Under the pieces are notes generated by a model that did not search any database, was not told the DNA's origin, and saw only the letters and a program-made list of their open reading frames with translations. DNA of 64,000 nucleotides from Saccostrea echinata (Eukaryota), in contig NW_026889761.1 of assembly GCF_033153115.1 (NCBI RefSeq), positions 18,910,001-18,974,000 of the forward strand, written 5' to 3'. A program made the position numbers and the translations under genes. Below are positions 51,713 to 63,594 of the stretch, in pieces; positions within the stretch are counted from its first letter, which is position 1, and every line of letters begins with the position of its first letter.

Positions 51713-53845
51713 GTCAAGTCAAGTAAATTTTATTTATAGTCGGCATGTATATACAGTATAACATAATAACATGAGCTATGATAGCTCTTTAACCGACTTC
51801 AACAAATTTACATAGATAAAAGTCAGTAAAAGTATACATAGTTAGTAAAAAAACATAATTTAAATAAACCATAGGAAATAAGCACATATACTAGCAATAA
51901 CAGCAGAAATTGTAATGCACATGTATAACTATCACAAGTAAGAAAGAATCTGACAAAGCACAATACAGAGCACACATTTACTATCACTGATCATGCTAAT
52001 GGAAAGAATAAAAACTAAAATAAGCAAAGGAGCACAAATAACATTGACATATATGACTATCACAAGTAAGTACAATCACAAAGCACATTTACTAGCATCG
52101 ATAGAAGAGAAAAACTGAAAACACAAGGAAAGCAACATAGATAGTAATTATACATATGACTAGCATGCATATGGACAATCACAGAACAGGAAAATAAAAC
52201 AAAACAAAATATAAAACAAATTCATATTAGAAATAAAAAGATACACCACAGATGAACACTTAAAAAGGCTTCTCAGACATAGGCAGCATGGACTGGTGTT
52301 TACATAAACTACATTTACATGTCTGATTTCCACACCAAGTAGATATATAGTTTTTAAAAAATTAAAGGATTTTGTGTTCCGAATATCATTAGGAAGAGTA
52401 TTCCATATCCTTGCTGCCTCATATCTGAAAGAACCTTTTCCTTGTAGTTTTTGGTCTAGGAATATCTGCGGCTTTAGCATACCTAAAATTATATGAATTT
52501 TCTCTAATTATAACCAGATCTTGGAGAAAGACTGGACTCTTTTATATAATTTAAAATGTTTCTAATGCCAGCAATCTCATTCTTCTAGTCTTTAGAGAGG
52601 GCAATTTGGATCTTTCCAATAATTGTTCATATAAACTTTTATAGTCATTATAAATAAAACGCAACGCTCTTAACTGAACTTTCTCCGTTTCAAAACATTT
52701 AGTTGTCTTGCTGCCTTCTTACACATCTCTGAGATATGAGTATTAAAATACCGGTATAGTTTAAAATCAATTGTAATTCCTAAAAGTTTAACTTCATCTT
52801 CCCATTTGATGATTACATTTTCCAAGTTAAAAGATATTTGTTGTTTTGGTGTTTTGGACCCAATTGCAATTGCTTGAAATTTTTCAGGATTTGCCTTCAT
52901 TTTATTAATTGAAAACCATTTAATAAGAGATAAACTGTCCTCTTGTAAAGAATTTATAACATTTTGTAATGTTTTGTAAGATTTTGATAGAGTATTATCA
53001 TCTGCATAATTATAGAGAATACAGTTTTTAACAAAAAAGAACAGGTCATTAATGAAGATATTGAAAAATACAGGTCCAAGAATGGATCCCTGAGGTACAC
53101 CTTTCAGAATATCCAGCATTTCACTTAAATGAGAACCAATCTTAACACATTGTTTCCTATTTGATAGATAACTGTTTAACAAATCTAATGTTGGATTGGA
53201 CAGACCATATACTTTAAGTTTTAGAAGGAGCAGATCATGAGGAAGGCAATCAAAAGTCTTTGATAAATCCATCAACATCGCAGCTATGTATTCGTTATTA
53301 TCAAGGGCATGTTTCCAGTCTTCGATAACCCGTAAAAGGGTTGATTGGCATCCAAAACCTGGTCTAAAAGCAGCCAAAAATGGGTTTAAAATCTTTTCAA
53401 AATAGCCATGCAGACAATTGAATTTCAATGGCTTTTTCAAAAATTTTAGAAATGACAGGGAGCACACTGACAGGTCTGTAATTGTCTTTCATAAGAGCAC
53501 TATTTTTCTTATGAATAGGTGTAACCTGAGCTTCCTTAAGCTTGTCAGGGAAAGTCGAGGATAATAAGGACAAGTTTATAATATTTGAAATAGGTTTAAC
53601 TATAACCGATTCTGCTAAATGGAGTAATTTAGATGATATTCCATCAATTCCTGTAGCTTTCTTTACATATATTTTACTGATTCTTTTCTTAACGAAATTT
53701 TCGGTCACACTAGTAAAAGAAAAATCTTCTTCAGGTATATTTTAAGGATATGCTTGAATAGCTGCAATACTTGGGTGTTTGTCATCAACTTGCACACTAT
53801 TTTCTACCATATCTTTGGCAACATTAACAAAATAATTATTAAAAA
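51713..53845 (-). mobile_element. 5'-truncated CR1/L2-group LINE (frameshifted RT, 3' UTR, (CTTGA)n tail)
   Basis: KATGIDGI, NYRPVSVLP, DLSKTFD, GVPQGSILGP, YADD, KLLGITID; AATAAA then TTGAC repeats; TTTATAACAA at 51703-51712 and 53846-53855. Confidence 0.9.
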
Positions 53846-55742: not shown

Positions 55743-58700
55743 ATGGATTATATTGACTTTGATTCGCCCAATGTTGGGGTCAGTGATACTCTCATTAGTC
55801 CATGGGACCTGATTCTCCACGGACTTTCCGAGGAACTGGACACCGATCAGAGCCTTTTACAAGAAGTATGCCAACGTGCAGTCCAGGACCTGGGGCCAGC
55901 ATTTGCTGGAATTCAGAATGCTGACGATTTCTTCGCTGCTCTTGAAAACAATCTGAGTAACGACAAAGGTTTAATTCTTGACTATTTGATAGCTTTAGTA
56001 GATATTGTTAATTTATACAGACGTCAGGGGACTGAACCATTCAAAGATGTTTTACTGCAATATAAAAACCAGTTAACAAAATACAGAGAAGATTGTGCAC
56101 GGGTCTCCAAATCTAAGGTTGAGGAATTCATAGGAAGAGAAGCAGACCTTAAAAATATAGAGGAAAATCTGAGAGGAAAAAAATATCAAGGTAATTAGCA
56201 AAAATAAATTTTATCATAACAAAAAAAAAAAAAAAAAAGATAATAAAAATTGTCCATAGGTTTTCAAGACCAAGTAGATATTGTGGGGGTGGGTGGAAAC
56301 CCCTCCCCCCCCCCCCCATTATATTCCCTGTTTATACCATACAGTAGCAAAGCAATGCAAGATAAACTGCCGTTGTGCCCCTCTCAATAATATTTATGAT
56401 GCCCCATTTCGATTTTTTTTTATTTGTCAGAGGATTTCTAATTGGTTGTCCCCCCCCCCCCCCCAAAAAGCCAAATTTAAAAACAAACTTAAATTGCTTT
56501 TTTTTCATTCGGGAATCTAAAAAGTTAACTGAATACATCATGTACATTAGTCAAATGAATTTTGTTCTAAAATTTTAGGCGTTGCAATCTGTGGAATGGG
56601 TGGGATTGGAAAAACAAGTCTGGCTACAGAGGTCTGCTACAGACTGCAGCATGCAAGAGAGAAATGGCATGTTGAGACCATAGACATGAGGTAAGTTAGT
56701 AGTATTTGTAATTTTGTAAAATCTAAAAGAATTAATAAAAGTTTAATATTTGTTATGTTTCCTCTTGCCATACTGTTTTGATCTATGTGTAAAATCATAG
56801 GCACCACATGCAACAAATGAATCTAATTAAAATGAGATCTTTGACCCACTCTAAGTAGATCCTAAGACCATCCTTAAAAAATTGTTTGTTTGGAATTGCC
56901 ACCTGGGAAGTTTCAGACCCTGGAAGGAGAAAGGGAAATTATTATTTTTTTTTAAATTAAAGTTAAATTAAAAAATTATGATAAAAATCCTAGTAAGCAG
57001 TGAGCACATTATTTTCTGCCTTTTTGTAAAGGGTGTCTCCCATCAACAAGGAACCCAGTTTTGCTTAGATCCGACACTCACTTTAAGTGATTGGGTGGCA
57101 CATGTGATAACTGGCCAAGAATTGATTGAATAAAATAATCTTCTTATTTATGGTTAATAAAATTTTTCCAGGAGGGGTCATTTCAATGAGGCGGGAGGCA
57201 ATTCCAAACAAACCATAATTTTATTTTGGCCTAAACAATATAGCAATCCAGTTGGTGTGGATCAAAGACTAATTTTAATTACATTGCACATGCAATGAAA
57301 TTTTTTTGCCCCCCCCCCCCAAAAAAAATAGATATTGTTATTTATATTCTGACCAATGTGATCTCAAATATTTTTTTAGAATGACAGCATTTTGTAGAGA
57401 AATTAATTGTTTACCTGTGCATTACCCTTGGATATTTTGACGAGTCATTCAGATTCTGTGTGCCTCTTTTTCAGAGAGAAGGAAGATTTGGTAGACTTAC
57501 TGCGAGATCTGGTTACTGCAGTAGGGCAGGAATGTAACAGTGCAGAAGTTGTAGACCTGTACTCAGAATTAATCACAGGACTGAGAGGATTGAAAGCCAG
57601 TAAAAAATTTAAAATACTAGTATATACTTAACATAAAGTAAATGCAGGAAGGGTATTTCTTTCTCAGTGTAATCTGGCTGCATCAGTTGCCATGGGACTT
57701 ATAGCTTTGTTAGAAGAACATTTGCTCCAATGTTTAAGATTCAGATCTTTATCAGATATCTATATTTTTCACCAGGTTCACTTACTGCAAATGCCTGAAA
57801 CAAAGAGGCTATAAATCCTCCATACCAGAGCCTACATTGTGTGTTAGAGAGGGGGATGTTGATATTCTTTTTGGATTAGATGCATTTGAACCCAGAGGTT
57901 CATTTTAGAAAGCAATCACATAATTACAGGCGCGGATCCAGGAATTTTTTTCCAGGAAGGGTCCATCTAAGTAAAAAAAAACTTTCAACCCAAAAATTCC
58001 TTGACAAACTATATTCCCTTCCCAAACGTATTAAACCCAGAAATATTCTTGACAAGCAAAAAAACAAAAAACAAAAAACAAAACAAAAACAAACCTAAAA
58101 TCCATTTCTCAAAGGTGCAAAACACCTATTTTGTGGTGGTGTTGGTGGGGTCCACATTTTCTGGGGGGGGGGGGATCCAAAGTTATTTTTTTCTTTCCTT
58201 CAGTATATACATTTAATAACTCTGCAAATTCCAGGGAGGGTCCATACCCCCCCCCCCCCAACCCCCCCAACCCCCTAGATCCGTGCATGAATTAGTACAG
58301 TTCAGGGTTTGAATCATTATCATATTCCTACATTGTCATATTTAGTGATTGCTTATCTATGTAGTTTAGATTTACAAAGGTGCAACTGAAGACAATTTGA
58401 AAATTTCTGAATGTATCATTAAACAATCGCAATGCTGAGTAATTTAATAACATGGCTTGGAATGATTCTTACATAAATGGAGTTAAAAATCACACTAACA
58501 TACTGCTAATTTAATGATGATAGTAAAGTAATAATATTTTTCTTGCCAGAAAAATATTTCTTAAATACCATATAGGGTGTCCAGTAAACTGAATTTTAAG
58601 TTGTGCTACAGATCTAAACTTCGTTATCATATTTGATCAAAACTAAACAAAGTTCATGAATTTTCAGGTCTAAAAATCTTTGTGTATAATTTTATTCCAG

Positions 58701-61700
58701 TAATTTTCCAAGTTTTTCCATGAATTATATTACAAGGCTCTCTGTATCTTTTTATTAAAATGGGTACAATTCTAATTCAAAAGTAATTTTTGTACCGGTA
58801 CCCTTGAGAATGTGGAGCATATTCAAGCACATGTTATCGTACTAGAATTATACAACATTATTATTTTTTAATCAATTTTTTCCACATCTTTAAATTCTAG
58901 GGACAATTTTCTTCATGGATAACCTGGATGATATGATGAAAAGCAGTGAAAGAAAGGAGCAGTTGCTGAAATTTTTGGAAAAATTCAGTCTTGATACAAA
59001 AGTACTAGATACCAAGGTAGCCAATGTAATTTATTAGCAAATATAATATGCTCAGCTACACGTGCAGTAAAACAGGCTTAGCAGAGTGCCCGAGACTAAC
59101 AATTCTAATTCGTTATAAATATTTTTTGTTTTCTCAGTTTAGTGCATAAATGAGCTCTTTGGCATTGTTTTCTATTTATAGCATATTTTGGCAAAATTAT
59201 CAAGAAAAGGGGGTGGGGTGGGGGTGGGGAGCAGCCCTATAGAATGGGCCAGTATTTGTAACATACAAGGCAAACAAAGTTGTAAAGAAAATTCTTCTTT
59301 AATGTACATTTTCATAAACAAAGCAATTATCATTTTAACATGAATTGTATTGCAGGAAGACTGGTAGTTTCAACTTCTCATGCTTTGTTGATATTGAAAT
59401 TGTGCAATGCAAGGGAGGATTTCCCAGTGATAATAAATATATATGTATATTCATATCGCTACAATTGATTTTGTTTAAGGTGCTTAACCCCCTTCCTATA
59501 TATATTAGGAATGGCAATTTGTAATCGGTTAACCGGTTACTGGTTGGAACGATGGTAATCGGTTAGAAAATTTGTAATCGGTTAGTCAGAAAAAATTAAT
59601 ATATGTGTAAATTTGAGTACAATTTCCTGAAAATTCAATTAAGAAATACAATTGAAATGTTAGCATTTTCACCTATCTTTTTAAGCTGATTTAGAGGTGA
59701 TAAAGGCTCTCTTGATTGATATCATGCCTCTCCCCATGGTTATAAAGTTTGTGAAACTTTACTAATCACAGAATATCTCCAAAATTTCTCCAGTGAAAAC
59801 ATTTCCATGTTTTTAGTACTGTACTTTGAAAATTGCTAGAAAGCGATTCCCTGCTTCAAGAGACTACCTGTCATATGTGACAATTTTAGAATTTCCCTTG
59901 ATAGGTCACTTAATACATGTTTTACTGTAAATATTATTTACCCAGGGTCAAGGTTATTAATATATAGAGTGGTTTTGAAGTCATATTACAAAGTTATTTC
60001 TGCTACAGCTTTCAAACTCTGATTGAATGATTTAAATCACAAGTTTTATAACTTGTTGTTCATGGCCCAAAATTGTGTCATTATTTAGATCCAAGGTCAT
60101 CAAGGCTGATTTTTGTTAAGAAATCAAAATTATCTAGAACTAAGATGTGTTTATATGCCCACAGGTTCGAATATTGCTGACTGTGCGACAAAAATTGGTT
60201 ACTGAGGAGAAACTGAATGTGTCAACATTTATCAGAAAGATATCCAGAAGTGCTGAAAGACTTGGTCAGTTGTTTGAAGTAGAACTACAAAGACTGAATC
60301 AACAGGAAGGTGTTTTACTGTTCAAAGCTTGTTGTAGAAGACCATTTACAGTAAGTGAAGTTACAGTTTAAAGATCAGACTGTTTGGTACATAGTAAAGA
60401 AATTAACTGAAAGATAAGTAACTCTGCAGCCAAAATGATAGATCATTCAAATGATATTGTGTATATATAGTAAAAACAGTTACAAGGCAGTTTACTACAA
60501 TTAAAGTTTAAATGTCAGTATACTACCCAGAGGATATTCAATGTTTTGTAGTTGGATGTGGAATTTATTTCACGAGTGGGGCAGGATATGTTCACGAGTG
60601 CGAAGAAGCAGGAGTGAAAATGAAAAAAGAATTGTCTCAGAATTGTTTCAACTACAAAACATTGAATGTTCTGTTTATTATATTTTCTTTGATTTTCCCT
60701 TTACCTTCCTTTTTTCATAACATGGTGTCATAGGCTCTGACGTCATACTTGAGTGCTTGTGAGACAAATGTGAGATTGAAAATAGTAAACATGGATTTTA
60801 ACAACAATTAAGAGAAACCTTTGGCAGTTTTGGTATTTGTTAGCATGGTTTATTTACTCTCACTATCTTTTAACAGGATAGGTAGCATTTTTGTAATACT
60901 CTTTGTGAAGGAAAAGAAAATAAAAAATTTTGCTGCACCATTGATATTTCTCCACGATGTGAAAAATATTGCTTTTATTTAATAAATAAATTCAGTATTT
61001 TACTGTTGAAAATGTAATAAAATGTTATACTTGACTATTTGTCTTGTTTAGAATTTCAGAGCAATTAATTTAAGGGAAGTTGGTAAGATTCTTTACTCCA
61101 TAAACATTTGACTCAAAGCTGATTTTACCTCATGTTTCAGGCTCCCCCTGAAAACGAGGTCTGTCGGAAGATTGTAGATTTATGTGGAGGAAGTCCACTG
61201 GCCATCAAATCTGTTGGGGCAGCTGTCAGAAGTGGGAAGGTTAATCCTGAAATGTTGGCCCAAAAGCTCGAAAAAGATTTCCCAGGTCTGAAAATGGAAA
61301 GTAAATGTCTCACTCAAACATTTGAAACCTTAGACAAACTGAAAAAAGATATCATGGTAAAGTTACATGTGTTTGGGACAGCTAAGTTTGACTTGGCCTG
61401 TGCAGCTTTTGTGTTAGGTGAGGACACTTTGAAGTATGAAAACCCAATTACTGCAATCACCAATGCAAATTTGATATATCTGAAGAGCCGCCATTTTGTA
61501 GAGGTTGATGACTTGACCAAAATGGAGAATGAAGATATTCAAACAGAATCAAAGAGTGTAAAATTTTCTCTACATCCATTAGTCCATGAATTTCTCTCTC
61601 AAATTGCAAATAATGAAATGTTTAAACAAGCAGATAATGAGGCAAAATGTTTGTTCATTGAGTATGTAGAGAAGAAAAACAGTGACATTTTTGAGAAATT

Positions 61701-63594
61701 TGAGAAAAACTGTGTGAAGGCATGGAAAGATTTGAAAGACTTCAAGGTTCATTTGAAAACATACTATGACTTGATCCAAAACATAACCCCTGATTTTCTT
61801 AAATTAAGGAAGAGTTCAAGATCAATATTGACTTGTAAAAGAATATCAGAAGTGGCAGATCTATTTCTTGAAGATTACGTTAAGTTTAAGCTGCTTGAAA
61901 AATTCATTGAGCAGTCAAAGTCAAGGGGTGATTTCTTGGAAACTGCGTTATGGCAGGTACATCTGGGAAGAAAATTTTTTGAAAGTGACAGAAATGAAAT
62001 AGCTGAAAATATTCTCAACTGTATTCTAACAGAAACATTACCCAGTTTTCCCCTGGAATATGGAAGTCTTGGTCCATTTGTTGAAGTAGCAGGTGCAACT
62101 TTTTATTTTGCTGGAAAGCTATGTCTCAAAGACAGAAAATATTCCGAGGCACTAGTCTACTTCGAAAATGCTAAGCAACTTTGGGCTAACAAACTAGAGA
62201 AGACCGTGAGAAACAAATACAGTATTGATCTAGCATTGGTGTACAATTCTTTAGGAAAAGTGCATGCAAATCTAACACCACCAAATCTTCAAAAATCAAA
62301 ATACAATCACTTGAAGGCATTTCGTATTGCATACAAAAAGTCTGAAAACTTCAACAACATTGATATTCCTCTGTATATTCACAATATCGGGAGATGTTTT
62401 TACAGAGAAGGAAATGAAAATGAGACAAGAAGCAAAAAAGATGAAGCCAAGCAATGCTTCAGAGATGCAGAGAATTATTACAAACAGGCTATGAAACTGT
62501 TCAGACATTTTAAAATGGAAAAGTTTGACAGCTTTGCAGAAGTGCAGCGATCCCTAGCTTTTGCAGAGATGAAGTTGAGGGAGATGGGATTAGCTGAGGA
62601 TGACATAGTAAAGGCTTATGAGTTGAGAAAGTTGGTCATGTCCCCTCCCCATGAAGCCATCACCACCACAGTGCATGATGTAGCCACAATAAGGATAGAA
62701 AGGGCCATTTATCTTTACTGGGAGTACTTTCAGAAAAAAATAGGAGACAAATGTAAGAATTTTTGTTTATTACATATTTTTTTGTGTAGTTTACCTCATA
62801 AAAATTGAATAATGCATCCATATATGGGTGTATACCATGGTTACCAGCAGACATGCTCCATATGCAGCATCTGGTGCATTTCGTGGACAATTTAACAGGT
62901 TAGAATTCAGGGATCAGGTTCATTACCAAGAAACTATATATAGCCTACCTGGGCCAAATTTGCATGGATATTGCATCCAAGGATACACACTTCAAGACAT
63001 TCTTTGAAATGTCTGCGTCTGATATATATTTTTTGGATGATTAAACAGGTTAAAAGTTTTTGGAGCAGGTTTACTCTTAAGTAAAAGTATAAGCTCTACT
63101 CAAACCAAACTTGCATGAACATTGCCTCTAGGGATGCACACTTAAAAAATTCAGTTGATGTGGAATATTGCATAACATCTTTATTTTCCTGAGACTGTAA
63201 ATGCCTGAAAATGATTTTGTGAGGAGTGAACAGACAGACAGTCATGGTAAATCAGAAATTCTCCTCTCATGGGGGGAACATAATAATTTTAAAAGTATAT
63301 GTTGCCAAGTTGTAATTTTTTTAAACATAAAATTTTATTGGTCAGTGTTTCAATCAGAGAATCTTTTGGCAAGGGAATTTTTTTTAGAATGGCATATATT
63401 TTTGAATTGCAGATGAGCCCATTAACAAGTTATATGAGGCCATTGCAGACTATGAACATGTGATGCATTTAACAAAACTTGGAGGTCTGCCCATGGATCA
63501 TCCAGAATACCAACACATAAAGAATAACCATATCTGGGCTCTGACACAGGTCAAAGAAAACAAGAAAATAGCCAAAGCTGTCCAGTTCTATAAG
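55743..63594 (+). CDS. DED-like + NB-ARC (STAND NTPase) + TPR protein, 3'-incomplete. Exons 55743-56190, 56579-56690, 57475-57599, 58901-59016, 60165-60350, 61141-62752, 63413-63594
   Basis: FIGREADL, Walker A GMGGIGKT, Walker B IFFMDNLD, sensor ILLTVR, LCGGSPLAI, winged-helix LHPLVHEF, TPR-like helices (YSEALVYFENA, LALVYNSLGKVH, IHNIGRCFY, AENYYKQA); phases consistent; no stop before the window end. Confidence 0.9.
57927..58289. mobile_element. Short non-autonomous DNA element with poly-G/C tracts in an intron
   Basis: CAGGCGCGGATCCAGG ... CCTAGATCCGTGCATG; AATTA on both flanks. Confidence 0.65.

Follow-up and report, generated by a model that had tools for sequence, protein, structure and literature searches.

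The window analysed here is a stretch of 64,000 nt from the oyster Saccostrea echinata (positions 18,910,001 to 18,974,000 of contig NW_026889761.1, forward strand). From position 55743 onward its plus strand carries a spliced gene whose product places a predicted N-terminal domain, derived from a death effector domain (DED), ahead of an NB-ARC NTPase and a series of TPR-like repeats. A preliminary description had taken the gene for an animal NLR-like receptor whose TPRs act as the sensor and whose N-terminus would recruit DED proteins of the FADD/caspase-8 type directly. We find that the gene is real and conserved in bivalves, and that profile comparison and modelling point to an N-terminus related to DEDs with an altered surface.

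Structure of the gene

The open frame within the window consists of seven exons joined across six GT..AG introns and comprises 926 open codons, all on the plus strand. Exon 1 (55743..56190) encodes residues 1–149, which include the start Met shared with the orthologues, the predicted divergent death fold of DED type, a linker and the first residues of the NB-ARC domain. The DED-derived domain itself extends over about residues 18–114 (55794..56084), as judged from HHalign, AlphaFold, fold searches and motif columns. The NTPase is then distributed over the short exons that follow: exon 2 (56579..56690), flanked by the supported joints of introns 1 and 2, carries Walker A (residues 155–162, 56593–56616); exon 3 (57475..57599) the helical part of NB-ARC; exon 4 (58901..59016) Walker B (residues 231–238, 58906–58929); and exon 5 (60165..60350), which has the joint of intron 4, the sensor-1 TxR (residues 273–275). 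Exon 6 (61141..62752; 1,612 nt, residues 330–866) contains the GxP motif (61183–61200), a winged helix with an MHD-like LHPL (61570–61581), a helical arm and, from about 62074, TPR-like repeats, and so holds most of the TPR region. Exon 7 (63413..63594) encodes residues 867–927, the end of the helical sensor region.

At 63594 this exon closes with a splice donor, and the gene runs on. Three further exons lie 10–13.5 kb past the window (C12 18983622-18984090, 18985275-18985664 and 18987437-18987489) and bring the protein to 1,230 residues, encoded across nine GT..AG introns. They add a tail of 304 residues (10% D, 13% E, 12% S) with a basic cluster at its end. The preliminary description was therefore right about the exons within the window, the intact spliced frame of more than 900 residues and the location of most of the sensor in one 1.6-kb exon, and its model stopped three exons short.

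Support for this structure comes from two sources. The first 1,213 residues of the S. echinata RefSeq model P0046 equal our translation, after which that model continues into the next copy of the gene. In addition, introns 1, 2, 3, 4 and 6 are skipped at their exact lengths (388, 784, 1301, 1148 and 660 nt) by contigs from related oysters; these contigs derive from two public runs of one study, and their origin from RNA is a guess. One contig of a relative reaches the terminal exon of the first copy. Five of the six window junctions are supported in this way, whereas no joint for intron 5 is listed among the contigs of the two runs, and no RNA record was found for the window stretch itself. 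We rejected the 2,141-residue RefSeq protein XP_061176141, which fuses the tandem copies (C12 18965743-19016784, window position 55743 onward). The fusion is most likely an annotation error, because each copy has its own terminal exon and stop.

The NTPase and the TPR region

The window exons match NB-ARC piecewise in Pfam. The S. cucullata orthologue P0004 (82–91% identical) passes the NB-ARC cut-off of 23.5 with 53.9 bits and falls below that of NACHT (22.4 bits, cut-off 26.7). As the preliminary description had stated, the set of NB-ARC motifs is full: Walker A, Walker B, sensor-1, GxP and the MHD-like His of the winged helix are all present, and so are the N-terminal motifs it quoted. K161 of Walker A, D235 of Walker B, P348 of GxP and H474 of the MHD motif are unchanged in all 38 aligned rows, and the Asp of the MHD motif is replaced by Pro in 29 of them. 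By analogy with other STAND (signal transduction ATPases with numerous domains) proteins, the predicted NTPase would be expected to exchange nucleotide and to oligomerise upon activation.

The Pfam scan of P0004 returned no LRR family at E ≤ 1 and no match to CARD or WD40, which places the protein outside both the NACHT + LRR definition of an animal NLR and the CARD + NB-ARC + WD40 layout of APAF-1. The term NLR is restricted to NACHT-LRR proteins in PMC3879445.

The TPR assignment rests on a TPR_12 match to exon 6 that lies under the cut-off (25.7 bits, E 1.3e-5, cut-off 30.1) and on the four full-length bivalve relatives, all of which score above the cut-off for TPRs. Matches of the family profile in PDB are to TPR proteins, plant NLRs and AfsR. 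The TPR region is 72–76% identical to that of the Crassostrea orthologues, compared with 64–67% for the nucleotide-binding domain (NBD). We conclude from these comparisons, and from the substitution data given below, that the TPRs are about as conserved as the NTPase and appear to be under purifying selection. The tail region ends in or near a cluster of K and R in many members of the family (here in the terminal exon, L005:3437-3489), and this cluster may be a nuclear localisation signal.

A predicted death fold at the N-terminus

To characterise the N-terminus, a full-length profile made from nine DED-negative sequences was searched against 1.84 billion representatives. Of 150 listed matches, the 46 covering or adjoining the N-terminus were taken together with eight known members, yielding 50 usable N-termini. 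The critical comparison used a 26-row N-terminal profile from which clear scorers of an oyster-DED model had been left out to avoid circularity. Against 11 oyster DEDs this profile reached 89.6% in HHalign (E 1.9e-6, 77 columns), compared with 0.1% for the reversed control; against 10 DED-positive relatives it reached 98.8%. When the same profile was ranked against 508 decoy segments and 11 reversed DEDs, six of the 11 oyster DEDs stood in the top seven and the remaining five at ranks 37–72. Depth is needed for this result, as 12 close N-termini alone gave 1.7%. The profile of all 50 N-termini gave 97.8%, a value that includes DED-positive rows, and our conclusion rests on the 26-row comparison. 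Among 16 relatives scanned with Pfam, which were picked mostly for their likeness to DEDs and not at random, nine pass the DED cut-off and seven pass those for DED, NB-ARC and TPR jointly.

The structural model is in agreement. AlphaFold with a 51-row alignment gave a mean predicted local distance difference test score (pLDDT) of 79.7, rising to about 90 in the core (residues 21–90), with a helix 3 of only three residues. A wide structural search with this model returned DED proteins for 10 of the top 12 entries, including MC159 (Z 10.5, root-mean-square deviation 3.0, 103 aligned), PEA-15 (Z 10.2, root-mean-square deviation 2.4, 88 aligned), FADD (Z 9.7) and caspase-8 (Z 9.4). These were followed by PYD, CARD and DD entries. 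Ranks 1–36 are all death-fold entries, two of them presumably so from the complex to which they belong, and the first clearly unrelated fold stands at rank 37 with Z 5.8. The CARD of APAF-1 scored Z 6.0, compared with 9–10.5 for DEDs. The modelled domain thus shares its fold and the register of its helices with the DEDs of FADD, caspase-8, cFLIP/vFLIP and PEA-15.

Several observations weigh against assigning the domain to DEDs. The N-terminus alone matches no death-fold family in Pfam, and exon 1 gives no DED match at E ≤ 10. The 51-row alignment includes about 10 DED-positive rows, so that the AlphaFold model is not independent of them. In Foldseek the first seven rows are all DEDs, but the best E value, 0.31, is not significant, and Z scores near 10 lie below 13, the value set by the structural search tool as a caution for helical bundles. 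A PDB sequence search with the N-terminal alignment gave nothing significant, and the ESM Atlas gave no usable match for the N-terminus. A single-sequence AlphaFold model of exon 1 (pLDDT 50.5) matched generic helical folds and was discarded. Taking the profile comparison and the model together, we conclude that the N-terminus is a predicted death fold with homology to DEDs. The claim of a DED-type N-terminus is in this sense upheld.

An altered DED surface

Two surface motifs of canonical DEDs are missing from the oyster domain. RxDL is described as characteristic of DEDs (PMC6651876), and FL as critical for assembly through DED2 of caspase-8 (PMC7156525). The first is found in 9 of 11 canonical oyster DEDs, in 5 of 20 more distant relatives and, among the 30 members from bivalves and brachiopods, in 1; it is absent here, as is the D/E-RxDL charge triad. 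The position of FL, on the helix 2 patch, is occupied by Q44-R45. In place of RxDL, 21 of the 30 bivalve/brachiopod members have an insert of the type LHxxxG, modelled as a hairpin. In the window protein these six residues, between helices 5 and 6, read LYRRQG. The His of the hairpin, kept in 24 of 38 family rows, is here Tyr (codon 92, window 56016-56018) and in the twin copy Gln, which counts against the function proposed below. Between the tandem copies the DED has six non-synonymous changes and one synonymous change, too few to test. On these grounds the domain is classed as DED-derived and not as a canonical DED.

Copies, orthologues and relatives

Six family loci in two tandem clusters were located in this genome; three additional genome searches found no further locus, and six is a lower bound. 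At 32 kb downstream of the first copy there is another, also intact, which is 92–95% identical to it, depending on the folded domain. Four diverged paralogues (24–28% identity in the large exon) are clustered 1.2 Mb away. They share the N-terminal domain, and in three of them it could be traced to a pair of exons between which it is divided. One of them, L023 (C12 17.790-17.796 Mb, minus strand), has an in-frame stop in the large exon and a shortened N-terminal exon and is likely to be a pseudogene. Tandem clusters that include a broken copy are common in immune gene families. A genome search with two N-terminal exons returned family loci only, and so revealed no separate protein with the same unusual DED, again as a lower bound.

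Orthologues are present in S. cucullata, C. gigas (two genes, 93% identical), C. virginica, Pinctada, Potamilus and Sinanodonta, and gene pairs occur in C. gigas, S. cucullata, Sinanodonta and Mya. The N-terminal domain is 66–83% identical among oysters and is present, at least partly, in all six loci. Ten matches in the large search could be named (Glandiceps, Branchiostoma, Anneissia, Diadema, Antedon, two from Lingula, Ylistrum, Mactra and Mya), and all named relatives of the family are bilaterian animals. In amphioxus, a hemichordate and echinoderms there are relatives that score above the Pfam cut-off for DEDs.

A quick NB-ARC tree of 58 rows, with midpoint root and support from the Shimodaira–Hasegawa-like approximate likelihood ratio test (SH-aLRT) only, places the window gene in a group of 28 rows (SH-aLRT 98); those members that have names come from bivalves and Lingula. 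This group adjoins DED-positive deuterostome proteins. The tree supports the grouping and not the origin of the family. The Lingula protein P0088 bridges both types, as it belongs to the 28-row clade and has the hairpin insert together with a DED match (E 6.6e-7) below the cut-off.

Neighbouring features

Two kilobases upstream of the gene lies a broken reverse-transcriptase fragment of the long interspersed nuclear element type (RVT_1; window 52673-53741, minus strand). Elsewhere the window contains a Cupin_8 exon (19905-20453, plus strand) and Ist1 exons (34473-35717, minus strand), both identified with Pfam, an unassigned coiled-coil exon (41328-41999, plus strand) and an RGG-rich exon (14464-14835, minus strand) with no Pfam match, which presumably resembles hnRNP R/Q. 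Arrays of a 163-168-bp satellite-like unit and of 20- and 46-bp minisatellites occupy 9925-10884, 22819-24094, 37061-37628 and 26081-27789.

Beyond the window, the second copy is followed closely downstream by a gene with a weak TIR match and a BIR (L009:34-1182, minus strand), which is read from the opposite strand. Between the tandem copies, at the duplication junction, is a front-truncated TIR + BIR copy joined to a reverse-transcriptase fragment (L006:1770-2636, minus strand). Another group of NB-ARC genes, distinct from the family, is arranged in tandem and also has TPR-like exons (L045, L046 and L062; C12 10.33-10.35 Mb, minus strand); there the NB-ARC exon apparently starts without an in-frame N-terminal domain.

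Comparison with known systems

The general plan of the protein has precedents, as the preliminary description had anticipated. NLR-like proteins of Acropora, Hydra, Trichoplax, Nematostella and amphioxus combine a death fold, NB-ARC or NACHT, and TPRs; they occur in tandem clusters and are functionally uncharacterised (PMC4083563, PMC7642931, PMC6321704, PMC2246300). In particular, Zmasek et al. (PMC2246300) reported Nematostella homologues of APAF-1/CED-4 with DEDs and with TPRs in place of WD40, and death folds, NB-ARC/NACHT and TPRs are among the parts of the coral, Hydra and placozoan proteins (PMC4083563, PMC7642931, PMC6321704). The available parts of these papers name DED, NB-ARC and TPR as components without describing the present family, and the exact DED-NB-ARC-TPR order may appear in the primary papers. 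The bivalve/brachiopod proteins differ in having a DED that Pfam misses, with a hairpin insert in place of RxDL, and a long acidic tail.

No account of this DED-NB-ARC-TPR family was found in the literature that we searched, although figures, supplements and the primary coral and Hydra papers may list such proteins; neither the term 'DED-NB-ARC' nor a paper on any of five locus identifiers of the family was met in it. The accessible parts of PMC8195603, PMC13712769 and PMC7831173 do not describe the family. Thus the type of architecture is already catalogued in cnidarians, placozoans and amphioxus, and what is new here is a hidden, resurfaced DED in a lineage reported to be without APAF-1.

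With APAF-1, CED-4 and Dark the protein shares a death fold directly before NB-ARC in an animal, and a ring-forming switch is likely. It differs from APAF-1 in having a DED-type domain instead of a CARD and TPRs instead of WD40, and none of the family profile's 34 sequence matches in PDB is APAF-1. Compared with the DEDs of FADD, caspase-8, the FLIPs and PEA-15, the domain lacks RxDL and FL, has the six-residue hairpin and is fused to a STAND NTPase. The combination of NB-ARC with a TPR sensor is shared with fungal, brown-algal and bacterial receptors (PMC4986451, PMC3341825). Given the animal examples above, it is not peculiar to fungi and bacteria, of which the preliminary description had called it typical. 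Unlike those receptors, the oyster protein has no near-identical or shuffled repeats and shows no sign of diversifying TPRs, and it has an animal death-fold head and named relatives that are bilaterians.

Proposed function and alternatives

APAF-1 and plant NLRs are autoinhibited in the ADP-bound state, exchange ADP for ATP and form rings. On this analogy we propose that the window protein is an intracellular STAND switch composed of a predicted DED-type fold, NB-ARC, TPR-like repeats and an acidic tail. Binding of a conserved cue to the TPRs would release autoinhibition, ATP exchange would lead to a ring or another oligomer, and the ring would cluster the DED-like domains, which could then nucleate a DED-bearing adaptor or caspase. 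We give this reading, an oligomerising switch with a death-fold output, a probability of roughly 0.5. Its putative ligand and partner, like its possible output in death or immunity, are inferred. Because the FL and RxDL surface motifs have been lost, the protein may pair with a DED protein that evolved together with it instead of with canonical FADD or caspase-8.

The evidence on the TPRs goes against part of what had been expected of such a receptor. When the tandem copies are compared, the ratio of non-synonymous to synonymous substitution rates (dN/dS) in the TPRs is 0.23. In 13 sequences from C. gigas, the share of variable columns is 12% for the TPRs, 15% for the NBD and 21% for the DED, and no internal self-similarity of the repeats was found. 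The TPRs are therefore not diversifying, and the proposal of a variable pathogen sensor is weakened. The apparent purifying selection on them makes a conserved molecule, whether from the self, from stress or from microbes, a likelier cue than an effector that changes fast. A further point on the negative side is that no functional or expression-response data were found for this gene.

About half of the probability given above falls to direct use of canonical FADD and caspase-8, as the preliminary description had proposed, and this more specific idea is accordingly doubtful. It draws on the best fold matches being the DEDs of FADD, caspase-8, FLIP and PEA-15, on the retention of RxDL by some of the more distant relatives, and on the report that molluscs are without APAF-1 but have FADD and DED caspases (PMC11463336). 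The genome itself contains candidate partners, namely one FADD-like gene with DED and Death domains and three genes with DED and caspase-like exons (the Death and caspase domains were scanned with Pfam in two of these genes). Direct recruitment is nevertheless weakened, because RxDL is absent and the FL position reads QR. A complex prediction for the N-terminus with the oyster FADD-like DED, run without an alignment, scored 0.00 and favours neither side. In its widest form, this idea would have the bilaterian-wide DED-NB-ARC-TPR family form a cytosolic 'DED apoptosome', through which caspase-8-type caspases would be switched on independently of death receptors; in bivalves, reportedly without APAF-1, the resurfaced cryptic DED would supply the STAND platform, with a lineage-specific pairing surface replacing RxDL/FL. 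We offer this extension tentatively. As a separate observation, one of the DED-caspase genes (L065:3023-3391) has an extra exon between its DEDs and its caspase domain that resembles a death domain by eye.

Alternatively, the oyster DED might be a decaying or structural remnant in a conserved, possibly nuclear STAND regulator whose signalling would run through the TPRs or through the acidic, Ser-rich tail with its basic end, and not through death-fold assembly. The loss of FL and RxDL, the variability of the DED, which is the most variable folded part among the C. gigas sequences, its few and mostly non-synonymous changes between the tandem copies, the conservation of the TPRs and the putative nuclear signal at the end of many members would all fit such a protein. 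We consider it unlikely, since the domain is retained among oysters and, at least partly, in all six loci, and since its hydrophobic core and the His/Gly of the hairpin are conserved in bivalves and Lingula (21 of 30). Conservation of these features suggests that the surface has been remodelled rather than lost. A housekeeping role as a single-copy STAND, for instance as an NPHP3-like ciliary protein, is highly improbable for this gene: TPR conservation and weak TPR_NPHP3 matches in some relatives point that way, but these reach 17–35 bits against a cut-off of 100, the gene has six loci here and pairs in other bivalves, and its N-terminus is a predicted death fold.

Because proteins of this general plan have already been listed for other invertebrates, the existence of an oyster DED-NB-ARC-TPR switch would be only moderately surprising. 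Domain surveys would overlook the family because Pfam misses its death fold. It also represents a natural DED variant in which both textbook surface motifs are replaced. A survey that kept only sequences with recognised domains reports the loss of APAF-1 from molluscs, annelids and brachiopods (PMC11463336), and this loss leaves the question of which STAND platform, if any, activates the initiator caspases of these animals. The predicted death fold on an NB-ARC protein in bivalves and Lingula would be a testable candidate for such a platform, in a farmed animal.

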